The notes beneath the pieces were generated by a model. That model did no database searches. It was given only the letters and a program-made list of their open reading frames with translations, and was not told the DNA's origin. The position numbers and the translations under genes are program-made. From positions 1-35,812 of the IMG/VR virus record IMGVR_UViG_2693429554_000020: a DNA stretch of 35,812 nt. One strand, given 5' to 3'. Each line of letters opens with the position of its first letter. Position 1 is the first letter of the stretch. Below, piece by piece: positions 27,907 through 32,306 of the stretch. The DNA is from a virus (taxonomy: Duplodnaviria > Heunggongvirae > Uroviricota > Caudoviricetes).

Positions 27907-28272
27907 TTATACTACCTCCTCAATTTCAGGAAGCGATACGAACACCCCACCAGCAGACTGTGCGACAGCATCCGCAATGTAGTGAGTGCCAGCTGCGCGC
28001 TGTAAAACCATTGCCCATCCCAGCGGGAAAATCTGATCGCCATCGGCACGAAGGCGGTTAAATAATGCGTTCTCTGTTACATCCAGCCAGTCAGCAGCTT
28101 CAGCGTAACCACCCGGCAACGCCGCGATAGTTTTTCTGACAGCTTTCACGTACCACTCAGGCTGTTTTTCTACTTTCCAGTGATGCTTACCCACGGTTAA
28201 CTCCTCGTTTCTGTGGTTACGTTTACGCAACTGAACCGCTAACTTTTGAATAGCACTCTGGTAATCCATCAT
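27907..28272 (-). CDS. CII-analogue regulatory protein (YdaT-like)
   Basis: Follows the Cro-like gene as in Rac-type immunity regions; start at internal Met (MMDYQ...) to limit overlap. Confidence 0.45.
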   Translation of the reverse strand: MMDYQSAIQKLAVQLRKRNHRNEELTVGKHHWKVEKQPEWYVKAVRKTIAALPGGYAEAADWLDVTENALFNRLRADGDQIFPLGWAMVLQRAAGTHYIADAVAQSAGGVFVSLPEIEEVV

Positions 28273-28486
28273 TTGGATTTGGATAAATATCAGGACGCAG
28301 CTCATGGGGGGTTACGGACCAGTTCCCCAGCTCACAAAGTTGTAAAACTCGTTCCGACGGGACTTGATTGTTAATTACCCAATTAGCGACAGATTGAGTA
28401 GATTTAAAACCAAAGCGACGAGCTACTTCAGATAAAGACTTTCCCGCATCCTTTACTGCTTTCTCGGTGTAGTTTTGAGATGACAT
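28223..28486 (-). CDS. Cro-like HTH repressor (YdaS-family)
   Basis: HTH segment SLSEVARRFGFKSTQSVANWV...PSERVLQLCELGNWSVTPHELRPD; divergent from the CI-like gene; AGGAG SD 7 nt upstream. Confidence 0.6.
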   Translation of the reverse strand: MSSQNYTEKAVKDAGKSLSEVARRFGFKSTQSVANWVINNQVPSERVLQLCELGNWSVTPHELRPDIYPNPNDGLPECYSKVSGSVA

Positions 28487-28602
28487 ATCTTTCTCCTCTG
28501 AAATCCAGAGGGGATAATGCTACTTAAAGTAGCGAATTGCAACTACTTAAAATAGAAATGACGAGCGTATGTGATGTGAGTAATCTTCTACCTATGGTAG
28601 AA
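28487..28602. promoter_or_regulatory. OR-like operator/promoter region (three CTAC-N5-GTAG palindromes, candidate pR and pRM)
   Basis: Operators at 28520-28532 (CTACTTAAAGTAG), 28543-28555 (CTACTTAAAATAG) and 28588-28600 (CTACCTATGGTAG, centred on the cI ATG). Candidate pR on minus: TTGCAA-17-CATTAT. Candidate pRM on plus: ATGACG-17-TAATCT, giving a near-leaderless cI mRNA. Confidence 0.5.
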
Positions 28603-29298
28603 GAACAGAAGTATCCAGATTTCGCCAAGAGACTAAACGAGTTAATGACAAACAAGGGAATTTCTGTCACCCAACTCAAAAGTCTTGTTGGCGTTACATA
28701 TGAAATGGCGCGGCGATACACAATCGGCGCAGCGAAGCCTCGTGCCTCTGTCATGAATAAACTTGCGTTGGCTCTGGGGGTATCGGCTTCATATTTAGAA
28801 TATGGTGTTGGCGAGAGAGAAGGATGTAAGGAAATGGCAAGCATCCCCAATCCAACAAAACCCGACGTATACAGGATAGAAGTTTTAGATCTTAGCGTTA
28901 GCGCAGGACCTGGAACCTATATGCTTTCAGACTATGTTGATGTGCTCTACGCCATTGAGTTCACAACAGAACATGCCCGTTCTCTTTTCGGTAACCGTTC
29001 TCAGGATGATATTAAGGTTATGACTGTAAATGGCGATAGTATGTCCCCTACTCTCGTTTCCGGAGATCGACTGTTTGTCGACATTTCTGTTCGTCACTTC
29101 CAGACTGATGGAATTTACTCTTTCGTTTACGGTAAGACTTTTCATGTTAAACGTCTTCAAATGCAAGGTGACAAGCTAGCCGTTCTTTCGGATAACCCTG
29201 CCTATGAGAAATGGTACATCGATGAAAAATCGCAGGATCAGCTTTATGTAATGGGCAAGGCGTTGATTCATGAGTCAATAAAATACAATCGGTTATAG
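28594..29298 (+). CDS. CI-type prophage repressor (HTH plus S24 LexA-like peptidase domain)
   Basis: N-terminal XRE-type HTH and C-terminal GDSMSPT (Ser) with downstream HVKRL (Lys). Start at ATG 28594 since the longer ORF (28537) would cover operator sites. Confidence 0.8.
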   Translation: MVEEQKYPDFAKRLNELMTNKGISVTQLKSLVGVTYEMARRYTIGAAKPRASVMNKLALALGVSASYLEYGVGEREGCKEMASIPNPTKPDVYRIEVLDLSVSAGPGTYMLSDYVDVLYAIEFTTEHARSLFGNRSQDDIKVMTVNGDSMSPTLVSGDRLFVDISVRHFQTDGIYSFVYGKTFHVKRLQMQGDKLAVLSDNPAYEKWYIDEKSQDQLYVMGKALIHESIKYNRL

Positions 29299-29313
29299 TT
29301 CTAAGGGCATATA

Positions 29314-29661
29314 ATGGCTAGTGAGCAGGGATTCGAAAAGATTAACATGGATATGTTGGTCTCTTATTTCTCAGAAAAGAATATATATCTAAAATGTACA
29401 CTATGTGGACACGACAGATTGACTGTGCCTCAAGTCAGCGCGAATGTGGGCATGCCATGTACTATGAAACTTGGTAGTTATGTGAATGTTTTTACTGAAA
29501 AAAGCATTTATTCTGATACTGCTAACCAGTATTACTTTTCACTAATATGCAACAATTGTGGAAATGAAATTCATATAAATGCGTTTTCAGTTTTGAACTG
29601 GGTAAATGAAAAGTTCCCAGCAAAAACGGAAGATGAAAAAAATGCCGACGCCGCAAAATAA
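29314..29661 (+). CDS. Zinc-ribbon protein co-transcribed with cI (hypothetical)
   Basis: 115-aa ORF 16 bp after the cI stop with AAGGG SD; CxxC pairs (CTLCGH..., CNNCGN); AT-rich. Confidence 0.5.
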   Translation: MASEQGFEKINMDMLVSYFSEKNIYLKCTLCGHDRLTVPQVSANVGMPCTMKLGSYVNVFTEKSIYSDTANQYYFSLICNNCGNEIHINAFSVLNWVNEKFPAKTEDEKNADAAK

Positions 29662-29728
29662 TGTAGTACCATTTAATAGTGAACTTCCCACAATTAGAAG
29701 ACACGGTGGAGATGGCGGAGGTGATGAC

Positions 29729-30013
29729 ATGCTTGAAGCCCGAGTCGCTAAGTTAGAAGCGAATGTTGAGGATATAAAAACAAATCTCGCAGAGATGAGA
29801 GCTGACATTCGTGATTTGCGAAACGCTCTCTCCGACACCCGACGCGATGTCGCTGTTATCCTTCAAAAACAAATAGATATAGATGAAAAGTTGTCAAAAA
29901 AACCTAGCCTAAGTGAAGTCAACAGCGCTATTTCATCAGCCGTAAATAAACAGATCGCATGGACTGTTGCAACAGGCTTGGCGATTTTAGGTCTCGCCAA
30001 ATTTATGTTTTGA
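29729..30013 (+). CDS. Coiled-coil protein with C-terminal transmembrane anchor (hypothetical)
   Basis: Track ORF 29606..30013; start at ATG 29729 preceded by GGAGGTGA SD (7-nt spacing). Heptad-like LEARVAKLEANVEDIKTNLAEM, then IAWTVATGLAILGLAKFMF. Confidence 0.45.
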   Translation: MLEARVAKLEANVEDIKTNLAEMRADIRDLRNALSDTRRDVAVILQKQIDIDEKLSKKPSLSEVNSAISSAVNKQIAWTVATGLAILGLAKFMF

Positions 30014-30319
30014 TAAGTTTTTGACTATGACCTGCCCTAGTTTTCTTACTATCGAGGCTAAATCACACAATCCATTGAGTAGTAAATTCCCTACCGTTTT
30101 ACACTTAGCCTCCAAAAACTCAACAATACTCTCATGATTGACTTCTCCCCACTTGATGATTAACTAGATCACATACTGATCTCAGCCACAATGAAACAAT
30201 CCATCACGTTCTACAACTCAGCTAACTTCACAATATAATTTTTTGATCATAGCCCCCAAAATATTTTACCTGTAAATTCAATGAATTAATTTCAAAATGC
30301 GTTTTTATGCCCTTAGCTT

Positions 30320-30361
30320 CTACTTTTTGTAGTTGATTTTTGCAACTTTAAGTAGCAATAT
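30320..30361 (+). promoter_or_regulatory. OL-like operators and candidate pL
   Basis: CTACTTTTTGTAG (30320-30332) and CAACTTTAAGTAG (30343-30355), with the same 23-bp centre spacing as the OR pair; TTGATT-17-CAATAT on the plus strand overlaps them. Confidence 0.45.
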
Positions 30362-30633
30362 CATTTTACCGACAACGAACAGGCAGGACGCCCACGAAGT
30401 AGCCGCCTGGGGCATATGAAGTCCAGGATGATTCGTTAGCAACAAAAAAGCGCCCTACCGGACGCTTCGCTCTTTAAAAATCAGTAACCCTCACTTTGGG
30501 CCTGGATCTGGTGGCCTGGGACGAGGTGGAATATGAAAAGGCTCTATTGGTCGACTCATTATCCAATCCTATTATGTCTCATTTCTTCGGTTTCGGTGGT
30601 TTCGGCTTCGGAGGTACATGTCCGTGAACTGGA

Positions 30634-31128
30634 TTATGCTTGTTGGTCATCATTAATATCCGTTAGTTCATTCTCTAGAGGTAGATCTCCCGCACACCAA
30701 GCAATAAATTTTTCTTTGGTTGTTAGATCGTACTTAGTTGGAACACCAGCAAAAATGCAGGCCCGAATGAAAGCCGCTCGTTCAAGTGATTTCCATGGAT
30801 TACTATCGGTATCTTGGATTTTTAAATACCTAGCTTGCAACTGATCTTCAGAAAGAGTATCAGACTCAATCAGCAGTCTTTTGTAATGCCTCGCTTGTTC
30901 TTTAGACATCCCAGCCTCCTGGCCGAACTGATAGACCAACTGAAGAACCGAAAGTACGGCAACAAACAAACCGAAAATAAATAAATTACTGTACGGGGCG
31001 AAAACTGAAAAACCGAGAACGATTAACATCAACGTTATTAATTTATCAATACGAGTTAACAACGTGTAATTCATCTTCTCCAATACATAAGAGTAGTGAA
31101 TATAAAATTTATAATCGTCTCTGGTCAT
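30634..31128 (-). CDS. Hypothetical membrane protein (two N-terminal TM helices), AT-rich
   Basis: 164-aa ORF in AT-rich DNA, antisense to the expected pL transcript; conflicts with plus ORF 30533..30844, which has a strong SD. Confidence 0.4.
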   Translation of the reverse strand: MTRDDYKFYIHYSYVLEKMNYTLLTRIDKLITLMLIVLGFSVFAPYSNLFIFGLFVAVLSVLQLVYQFGQEAGMSKEQARHYKRLLIESDTLSEDQLQARYLKIQDTDSNPWKSLERAAFIRACIFAGVPTKYDLTTKEKFIAWCAGDLPLENELTDINDDQQA

Positions 31129-31511
31129 ATTAGTCTCAGTTTTCCTTGGGTGGTTTTGGAGGAACTGGAGGCTTTTGTCTTAACGGCACATGCCTCTCCT
31201 CATACTTATCTACACATCGTTCCATATAAATCCTTATCGTTGTTGGGGAGGGTTACATAATAACCAAATCCTTGTTGTTGGGGAATAACTAGGTCCACCT
31301 CGCCTGATGTGGCTAAAAGCAGGCACATAACAGCTAAGTATTTTCAACCAGAGAGAATCCTTAGCGTTGTGGTGAATGCGGCTCAGCGCACGCGGGTAAA
31401 GGTTGAGGCTGACAGTCGACCTTCTGTGGATACCCACCCGCCTGGTGTGCAACCTTCGCCAGGCACCGGGAGGCGCCCGGCACCACAACTTTATGCTGTG
31501 TGTAGTCTTGG

Positions 31512-31556
31512 CGGTACCAGCTTGTACCCTTGCTTCCGGCTGGTACCGTCCTTTTT
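31512..31556 (+). terminator. Plus-strand terminator-like hairpin upstream of HD-domain gene
   Basis: CGGTACCAGC (31512-31521) pairs with GCTGGTACCG (31539-31548), 17-nt loop, followed by TCCTTTTT. Confidence 0.4.
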
Positions 31557-31769
31557 ACAAAACAGAGAAGAGCATCACCGGACGACGGGCTCATAACCCA
31601 ATCCATCCGGGCGGCTGCCACCGCAGGTGTTCTTCTCTGTTTTGTGGAGAAACTAACCGCCCCTACGGGGGCATTTATGGAAATGTAATTGACTCAATAA
31701 TCGCCGGACGGTGAGGGCTTCCTTTTACCAGAATTCAGCGCGGTGCAGCGCATATACGTGGAGAACAAA

Positions 31770-32306
31770 ATGTCATTTATTAAAACTTTTTCCGGGAAGC
31801 ATTTTTATTATGACAGGATAAATAAAGACGACATCGTTATTAACGATATCGCGGTTTCCCTTTCAAATATCTGTCGCTTTGCAGGACATCTTTCACACTT
31901 CTACAGTGTCGCCCAACATGCGGTGCTTTGCAGCCAGCTGGTGCCGCAGGAATTTGCTTTTGAAGCTTTAATGCATGATGCAACAGAAGCATATTGCCAG
32001 GACATCCCCGCACCACTGAAACGACTTCTTCCTGACTATAAACGGATGGAAGAAAAAATAGACGCCGTAATCCGTGAGAAATACGGGTTACCTCCTGTTA
32101 TGAGCACGCCAGTGAAATATGCCGATCTCATTATGCTGGCAACCGAACGCCGCGATCTCGGGCTTGATGATGGCTCTTTCTGGCCTGTACTGGAAGGTAT
32201 CCCGGCAACAGAGATGTTCAAAGTGATTCCACAGGCACCGGGCCATGCCTACGGGATGTTTATGGAACGTTTTAACGAGTTATCGGAGTTACGCAAATGC
32301 GCATGA
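31770..32306 (+). CDS. HD-domain phosphohydrolase (YfdR-like 5'-deoxynucleotidase family)
   Basis: H..H...HD motif (FAGHLSHF...AQHAV...LMHDATEAY); start at ATG 31770 with GGAG SD (track ORF begins at 31743); 178 aa. Confidence 0.65.
   Translation: MSFIKTFSGKHFYYDRINKDDIVINDIAVSLSNICRFAGHLSHFYSVAQHAVLCSQLVPQEFAFEALMHDATEAYCQDIPAPLKRLLPDYKRMEEKIDAVIREKYGLPPVMSTPVKYADLIMLATERRDLGLDDGSFWPVLEGIPATEMFKVIPQAPGHAYGMFMERFNELSELRKCA

Follow-up and report, generated by a model that had tools for sequence, protein, structure and literature searches.

Putative CTAC-N5-GTAG operators of an HK022/lambda-type switch and a conserved structured element beside pL in an Escherichia coli prophage

Which protein reads the 13-base-pair (bp) palindromes that surround the divergent cI and cro genes of IMG/VR virus record IMGVR_UViG_2693429554_000020, and what would its binding control? 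The stretch analysed here at its full length of 35,812 nucleotides (the window) is an SfV/CPS-53-like lambdoid prophage of E. coli. It contains five dyads of the form CTAC-N5-GTAG, three between cro and cI in the right operator region (OR) and two further to the right in the left operator region (OL). Comparison of related loci makes it very probable that these five dyads are the operators of the CI repressor in a lysis/lysogeny switch of the HK022/lambda type with an uncharacterised specificity. The design of this switch is already known from phages HK022 and lambda; the operator specificity is new and widespread. The sites, the candidate promoters and the two regulatory genes are listed below; the dyads are given without strand.

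28520 to 28532: OR1, CTACTTAAAGTAG, an exact match to CTAC-N5-GTAG that fills the spacer of candidate pR and abuts its -10 hexamer.
28543 to 28555: OR2, CTACTTAAAATAG, one mismatch; abuts the -35 hexamer of candidate pR and lies 2 bp from that of candidate pRM.
28588 to 28600: OR3, CTACCTATGGTAG; its central base, 28594, coincides with the A of the cI ATG and with the predicted +1 of pRM.
30320 to 30332: distal OL site, CTACTTTTTGTAG; abuts the -35 hexamer of candidate pL.
30343 to 30355: proximal OL site, CAACTTTAAGTAG, one mismatch; lies within the spacer of candidate pL and abuts its -10 hexamer.
28514 to 28542, minus strand: candidate pR, -35 TTGCAA (28542-28537), 17-bp spacer, -10 CATTAT (28519-28514), predicted start about 28506-28508.
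28558 to 28586, plus strand: candidate pRM, -35 ATGACG (28558-28563), 17-bp spacer, -10 TAATCT (28581-28586), predicted start 28593/28594.
30333 to 30361, plus strand: candidate pL, -35 TTGATT (30333-30338), 17-bp spacer, -10 CAATAT (30356-30361), predicted start about 30367-30369.
28223 to 28486, minus strand: cro-like gene, 87 amino acids; Pfam YdaS_toxin fold family, PHROG 35 transcriptional repressor.
28594 to 29298, plus strand: cI repressor gene, 234 amino acids, with HTH_3 and Peptidase_S24 domains; RefSeq places the start identically in a prophage with 99.7% identity.

The centre-to-centre distance is 23 bp within OR1/OR2 as well as within the OL pair, OR2 and OR3 are 45 bp apart, and the OL pair lies 1.73-1.81 kilobases (kb) to the right of OR. 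One dyad family is repeated at OR and OL and overlaps the early promoters at both; aligned along their directions of transcription, the 42-nucleotide blocks of OR and OL agree at 33/42 positions without a gap (manual count). The initial annotation of this DNA had described three dyads at the cro/cI divergence and two about 1.8 kb rightward, a 23-bp spacing in both pairs, one dyad inside the 17-bp spacer of each candidate early promoter and a third OR site that has the cI start codon at its centre. All of this was found at the positions claimed, with the hexamers reading as quoted. It had also proposed a genome-wide motif search. Allowing up to one mismatch to CTACTTNNAGTAG, the window yields exactly these five matches, all of them in the two intergenic regions, and no further copies elsewhere. 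Exact CTAC-N5-GTAG occurs three times in 35.8 kb as compared to 0.20 expected, and three or more matches were reached in 0/100 shuffles. OR3 forms the core of a longer palindrome, TCTTCTACC-TAT-GGTAGAAGA (28584-28604), and its centre, CTATG, contains G/C, whereas the centres of the other four sites are pure A/T.

Concerning the protein, CI matches the Cro/C1-type family Pfam HTH_3 (E=1.8e-5, residues 16-68) and the LexA-like Peptidase_S24 (E=7e-17), and the residues for self-cleavage, S103-A104-G105, S149 and K186, are invariant in an alignment with 18 relatives. Helix 3 comprises T35-Y-E-M-A-R-R-Y42. Across 52 distinct N-termini the pattern (V/I)(T/S)YEM(A/V)RRY(T/S)xGxAxPR is nearly invariant, while the rest of the domain varies. 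The 434 repressor aligns without gaps over helix 2, turn and helix 3 with CI (VTQLKSLVG-VTYEMARRYTIG-AAKPR). Together with the HTH_3 match, this alignment points to the TYEMxRRY stretch as the recognition helix. A protein search returned 541 CI relatives, in which one conserved C-terminal domain is joined to at least five unrelated N-terminal helix-turn-helix (HTH) domains, so that operator and recognition helix can be followed across a family. For the DNA-binding domain of CI, the highest identity to any of the phage records in the collection is 54%, counted over the part that aligns.

Close relatives with a window-type N-terminus were found in an E. coli-like metagenome, Citrobacter freundii, Citrobacter koseri and Gibbsiella. 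Their CI proteins show 70-85% overall identity to that of the window and 61-100% identity in the N-terminal part. Every one of these loci has three OR and two OL sites at the spacing of the window, and this layout is kept despite differing cargo genes and a distance from cI to OL of 1.35-2.8 kb. The negative control consisted of matches of a contig scan with the CI alignment, mostly relatives with other HTH domains: CTAC-N5-GTAG sites are absent from 17 loci that have the same CI C-terminal domain behind other HTH domains. The OR3 18-mer itself is present in more than 120 viral contigs. About 130 loci have OR1 at -66 to -69 from the cI ATG, in most of them OR2 at -45, and the third site at 0. 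Part of this set was baited with the 18-mer, and in that part OR3 is necessarily constant. OR1, OR2 and the OL pairs are independent observations, as are those promoter positions that the bait does not cover.

The repressors of these loci fall into four length classes (149-153, 227-229, 234 and 289-297 amino acids), and across this wider family the N-terminal 75-80 residues are 43-100% identical to those of the window CI. The same helix 3 and the same layout of three plus two sites are found in Aggregatibacter phage Aaphi23, Providencia phage PSTCR8lys, E. coli phage Phi06_2987 and Acinetobacter phage AbTJ. HK022-type relatives with the helix TPKAVSKWFNG instead carry GAAC-N5-GTTC at -57, -33 and 0. 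Sites of the CTAC type accompany TYEMxRRY and are absent or swapped with other helices; the operator thus changes when, and only when, helix 3 changes, the signature expected of a repressor-operator pair. The earlier proposal that the dyads are the immunity operators of the repressor is supported by their layout in about 130 loci, by their tracking of helix 3 and by their absence with other HTH domains.

The same operators and helix 3 also serve short repressors of 147-153 amino acids (loci L052 and L109 and many of L151-L267). These proteins are too short for an S24 cleavage domain and may not be induced by RecA-dependent self-cleavage; at loci with short repressors the OL pairs are degenerate and spaced 21-22 bp.

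Conservation also marks out the three promoters. Among 80 distinct OR regions, conservation of about 90% is seen for the TTG of the pR -35 hexamer and for each of A2, T3 and T6 of its -10 hexamer. TTGA of the pL -35 hexamer and A2 and T6 of its -10 hexamer are 100% conserved in 40 distinct OL regions. For pRM, AAATGAC (-38 to -32) and TAAT (-13 to -10), both outside the OR3 18-mer used as bait, are 70-100% conserved in the same 80 OR regions, and the 17 nucleotides between the hexamers only 30-60%. This retention of hexamers amid varying surroundings speaks for the pR and pL assignments of the initial annotation. Its suggestion of a leaderless cI transcript likewise fits what was found: pRM (ATGACN-17-TAATCT) ends 7 nucleotides before the cI ATG, there is no Shine-Dalgarno sequence, and HK022/HK75 have the same geometry. 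The predicted pRM start, the first purine 8 nucleotides after the -10 hexamer, would be the A of AUG. The lambda pRM transcript is leaderless as well. Candidate pR would drive cro, the CII-like gene and the replication genes.

An in-frame upstream ATG at 28558 was rejected as the true start of cI, because its bases are those of the conserved pRM -35 hexamer (ATGAC), the variation of the 17 nucleotides after it follows no codon pattern, and an alignment of relatives from every group puts the start at M-V. In gene predictions the start of cI is often set upstream in frame (region 28537-28593), which yields products of 246 or 253 amino acids and extends many cI genes by 12-19 codons into the promoter; a correction of start codons is warranted. 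The annotated start of the AbTJ repressor (L271, position 2390) likewise looks too far upstream.

From these sequence features we infer how the switch may work, including binding, order of occupancy, activation from OR2, the role of Cro and the transcription starts. A CI dimer would bind the 13-bp CTAC-N5-GTAG dyads via helix T35-YEMARRY-42. OR1 and OR2, 23 bp apart, bracket the -35 hexamer and fill the spacer of the leftward pR, and the mirror-image OL pair does the same at the rightward pL; CI bound at both pairs would shut off both early operons. OR3 on the +1 of pRM would autoregulate a leaderless cI transcript, which probably also carries two cargo open reading frames (ORFs). It would be filled last, capping repressor synthesis at high CI levels. 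Central operator bases affect the affinity of the 434 repressor, and by this analogy the G/C-containing centre of OR3 suggests a lower affinity for CI, which fits a site that restrains cI expression. Lying immediately before the pRM -35 hexamer, OR2 may stimulate pRM, and looping between OL and OR over 1.7 kb is possible. Self-cleavage at Ala104-Gly105, stimulated by RecA in the SOS response, would induce the prophage and derepress the early promoters; Cro would then bind the same sites and turn pRM off.

Besides the use of OR3 as bait, several points weigh against this interpretation. None of pR, pL and pRM was picked up when 28100-30800 was scanned for generic sigma-70 promoters, and all three match the sigma-70 consensus poorly, at 7-8 of 12 positions (pR 8/12, pL 7/12). 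Since the scan missed them, we rely on conservation footprints instead. Relative to the predicted pRM start, the centre of OR2 falls at -45; OR2 of lambda lies 3 bp closer, so that activation of pRM by the lambda mechanism is uncertain. A sequence search of solved structures with CI gave no significant match by which to secure the assignment of helix 3.

The dyads could also be real but read by Cro or another factor, with CI acting elsewhere. A Cro-like HTH protein of 86-87 amino acids indeed accompanies the sites in the close relatives. OR3 alone has arms of 6-9 bp (TTCTAC...GTAGAA), kept even where the right arm is non-coding, and could mark the preferred site of a second protein. Yet the sites follow helix 3 of CI across differing C-terminal halves (149 to 297 amino acids) and three bacterial orders, and the equivalent sites of the HK022 system are annotated as repressor operators. 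We therefore regard an exclusive reader other than CI as improbable. CI and Cro share operators in known lambdoid switches, and for this reason such an explanation mostly merges with assignment of the dyads to CI.

Similarly improbable is that the OL pair is not the operator of a rightward early promoter and serves only as looping partner, or controls a short RNA. The pL hexamers are weak, the next gene (30634-31128) lies on the opposite strand, a hairpin follows the conserved RNA that begins after pL (see below), and terminator-like sites just downstream in related loci are mostly on the opposite strand (104 vs 12). Against this stand the invariance of TTGA and of A2/T6 in the 40 OL regions and the occurrence of the same pL/oL1 design in HK022. 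Phage SfV has unrelated operators, yet it carries a strong -35/-10 pair that is equally far from the conserved RNA; immediately after this RNA and on the same strand come orf33, yfdP-T homologues, xis and int. A short RNA as product would still leave the OL pair the operator of a promoter.

OR3 in particular might be no operator at all and merely reflect the N-terminal codons (ATG GTA GAA GAA) or a translation-start signal that mirrors the upstream bases. Its right arm does encode M-V-E-E, and this N-terminus is common to relatives of other specificity (MVQEE). In Aaphi23 and AbTJ, by contrast, TTCTAC-N5-GTAGAA stays 44-45 bp from OR2 although the likely start codon lies 20-27 nucleotides further downstream. 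OR3 thus keeps its distance to OR2 and not to the ATG, and the dyad belongs to the promoter region. HK022-type relatives carry their own half-site GAAC at the place of OR3; the dyad therefore changes with specificity, not with the N-terminus alone, and a coding by-product is unlikely indeed. Finally, chance palindromes in A+T-rich intergenic DNA, conceivable for a short motif with 8 specified bases, are hardly credible given the excess of exact matches over shuffles and the identical positions and spacing in about 130 loci.

With the dyads assigned to CI, the closest known systems can be compared. Among deposited phages, the nearest CI proteins by tblastn are those of HK639 (58.4%, residues 6-234) and HK022/HK75 (42.3%, residues 1-234). 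The HK75 record carries HK022-derived annotation of oR1-3, pR, oL1-3, pL and putL. Its oR3 (2194-2208, TGAACTTATGGTTCA) is centred on the cI ATG (start of the coding sequence at 2201), a TATAGT ends 7 nucleotides before this ATG, the protein starts with M-V, and oL1 lies within the pL spacer. The window shares all of these features with HK022/HK75: half-sites of 4 bp that are 5 bp apart, oR3 on the A of the cI ATG, an M-V start, a -10 hexamer ending 7 nucleotides before the ATG, oL1 in the pL spacer and a structured RNA within about 15 nucleotides of pL. By homology of CI and by the third OR site on the cI start with its -10 hexamer 7 nucleotides upstream, it groups with the HK022 subfamily. 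The systems differ in the half-site (GAAC in HK022, CTAC in the window), in helix 3 (TPKAISKWF vs TYEMARRY), in the site positions (-57/-33/0 vs -68/-45/0) and in the OR2-OR3 distance (33 vs 45 bp). Relative to the promoter, the pR operators of the window are shifted one position upstream as compared to HK022. HK022 has three OL sites and the window two, and an OFR-like site was not found in the window. The window does not have the GAAC half-site of HK022 immunity; its CTAC half-site and its different helix 3 make it heteroimmune to the HK022 specificity.

Phage lambda resembles the window in its divergent cI and cro, its tripartite OR, its self-cleaving S24 repressor, its leaderless pRM transcript and an OL that lies past cargo genes sharing the cI transcript (rexAB in lambda). 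It differs in having 17-bp operators of unrelated sequence, three OL sites, an OR3 that lies over pRM elements rather than on the +1, and N and nut sites, which the window prophage lacks. The 434 repressor belongs, like the window CI, to the HTH_3 family, and the A/T-rich centres of four dyads as opposed to the G/C-containing centre of OR3 recall its central-base effect; contact residues and operator differ.

The operator code, CTAC-N5-GTAG read by TYEMxRRY, is testable and concerns an apparently uncharacterised repressor family that is common (more than 120 viral contigs; phages of Enterobacterales, Pasteurellaceae and Acinetobacter). A literature search with the operator strings matched nothing relevant, and neither did one for the operators of Aaphi23. 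The code would allow homoimmune prophages to be predicted. HK022, with GAAC-N5-GTTC and TPKAISKWF on the same scaffold, forms with the window a natural pair for studying a change of immunity specificity.

The second question that this locus raises is what follows pL. The approximately 80 nucleotides after pL are far better conserved in all close relatives than the surroundings of the operators, and they show compensatory changes. The features concerned are as follows.

30374 to 30437, plus strand: structured element of 64 nucleotides with helices P1 (30374-30379/30432-30437), P2 (30382-30384/30390-30392) and P3 (30406-30410/30423-30427).
30447 to 30476, no strand assigned: hairpin (30447-30468) and boxA-like CGCTCTTTA (30468-30476); on the minus strand the hairpin reads as a strong intrinsic terminator for gene 30634-31128.

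The element starts 12-13 nucleotides after the pL -10 hexamer in the window and in SfV, i.e. at the 5' end of the predicted pL transcript; in SfV, which is of a different immunity type, the -10 hexamer (CATAAT) and the conserved RNA are about as far apart as in the window. The core is common to SfV, SfII, SfIV, ST64B, SEN34, ZF40, mEp237, phiNP, YeP1 and other phages of unrelated immunity. An exact-core scan of viral contigs gave more than 110 distinct variants with the invariant unpaired core CACGAAGTAGCCG. RNAalifold yielded the inner helix only; the outer helix was found by inspection and then tested. With 109 sequences, the three-helix model pairs in 94.3% of cells as compared to 73.8% in shuffles, and its covariation score is 0.508 as compared to 0.120; 0/500 shuffles reach 0.508, and the score is at most 0.115 when helix partners are slid by 1-3 columns. 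Changes on both sides were seen in 5/6 pairs of P1 and 4/5 pairs of P3; P2 lies partly within the bait and its covariation is not assessable. In all likelihood, 30374-30437 is a genuine structured element. The covariance model finds one copy per locus. The element is present in 1,504/5,426 (28%) complete E. coli genomes and is never annotated. At the operators and the RNA element no Rfam family matched, either at gathering thresholds in a scan of the window or at E up to 5 in one of 28400-31800, and a literature search gave no match to the core sequence. As a lead, the element is more novel than the operators.

Its position is equivalent to that of putL in the phages with the nearest CI, and these phages have no N; both points speak for antitermination as a possible function. 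The genes after the element vary, which argues for a role at the level of the operon. Tentatively, the element could represent a new class of cis-acting leader RNA that modifies RNA polymerase starting from pL (processive antitermination or anti-pausing) in N-less lambdoid phages. The group proposed, with the same reserve, would comprise SfV, SfII, SfIV, ST64B, phiNP, ZF40 and others, and its element would be analogous to HK022 put and structurally unrelated to it. A boxA-like GCTCTT[TA]A follows the element in 35/139 variants as compared to 1 on the other strand, which speaks for antitermination. Other results speak against it. In 118 loci, intrinsic terminators within 1.5 kb were found on the element strand in 12 and on the opposite strand in 104, with no enrichment downstream on the element strand. 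The next gene in the window (30634-31128) is convergent, and counts of G-U and A-C (15 vs 22) do not fix the RNA strand by wobble pairs. The element may instead be a leader that stabilises the transcript or a short RNA driven by pL.

Like the element, the put RNAs of HK022 and HK639 lie directly after pL, are about 65 nucleotides long, have highly conserved unpaired bases and belong to N-less phages; HK639 put also occurs once per phage. Put works without a protein factor, by way of the zinc-binding domain of the RNA polymerase beta' subunit, to give processive antitermination. It consists of two tandem stem-loops, whereas the element has an outer helix that encloses two hairpins, and the two have in common only ACGAAC-GGC and CAGGATGA, in different structural contexts. 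Location at the start of the early operon of an N-less lambdoid phage is thus shared with the put family; similarity in sequence and structure is not. Homology to put was rejected, because searches with covariance model R1 at E up to 10 left HK022 and HK639 unmatched, the annotated putL-like RNA of HK639 included, and because covariation supports a different topology. AgvB/AsxR anti-small RNAs were rejected since they lie at pR' moron sites, and a small ORF from the P3 loop (ATGAAG...) since its ATG is often ACG in variants. In 2025, a paper on the LLS phage noted no N homologue and guessed at a put-like mechanism (PMC12315714). The RNA beside pL may bear on this point, i.e. on how LLS/ST64B-type phages sustain early transcription without N.

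A divergent subclass of the RNA is found in locus L053, where it follows the repressor, cargo genes, a terminator and a promoter, a pL-type position. On the plus strand, CGCTCTTTA after the hairpin resembles boxA of rrn and of the lambda nut sites. In the HK639 record (L150), an "M3-like RNA" is annotated at 37910-37969, after the cII-like gene.

With regard to the prophage as a whole, its immunity stretch, 28100-30482, matches a prophage of E. coli TW14425 at 99.7% identity; that prophage terminates with xis, int and a tRNA-Thr beside proA. The immunity module is present at a length coverage of at least 80% in 17/5,426 complete E. coli genomes. Among deposited phages, coverage of the stretch is 9% at most. 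As in other lambdoid switches, cI and cro are divergent and a CII-like gene follows cro (Pfam and PHROG matches of the ORFs; RefSeq annotation of the TW14425 prophage). A cro homologue of 86-87 amino acids is also found in relatives L020-L027. Searches of the window ORFs with Pfam and PHROG, together with the RefSeq annotation, revealed no N-like family. Between cI and OL lie two further genes.

29314 to 29661 and 29606 to 30013, plus strand: two cargo ORFs between cI and OL, function unassigned.

These two ORFs (29314-30013) are probably co-transcribed with cI. To their right follow about 620 bp without a convincing ORF, and the next gene beyond OL is 30634-31128 on the minus strand, convergent to pL. 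What lies between cI and OL varies: in the relatives this cargo slot holds a HigB-like toxin, a HipA-like kinase with DUF3037, a ParA/CbiA-like ATPase or unknown ORFs. PADLOC gave only weak coiled-coil matches for the cargo ORFs of the window. The cargo ORF of 135 amino acids has a coiled coil and a C-terminal hydrophobic segment, and a homologue occupies the same slot in an unrelated immunity region (locus L053, 7884-8303).

Two minor observations concern further potential RNA structures. In the cro leader (28495-28511; minus-strand RNA CCUCUGGAUUUCAGAGG), the cro Shine-Dalgarno sequence forms part of an inverted repeat, the arms of which differ by subgroup yet stay complementary (CCTCT/AGAGG, CCTGTGA/TCACAGG, CTTACC/GGTAAG). 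The repeat begins 2-4 nucleotides after the pR -10 hexamer, at the same place as HK022 oR1, and may act either as a hairpin in the RNA or as a site on the DNA. On the plus strand, 31336-31559 gives a sub-threshold match to the STnc100 small RNA family (42.2 bits as compared to a gathering score of 47, E=4.7e-7), the 3' part of which resembles DicF (19.4 bits); it sits in an ORF-poor stretch of about 600 bp upstream of a yfdR homologue.

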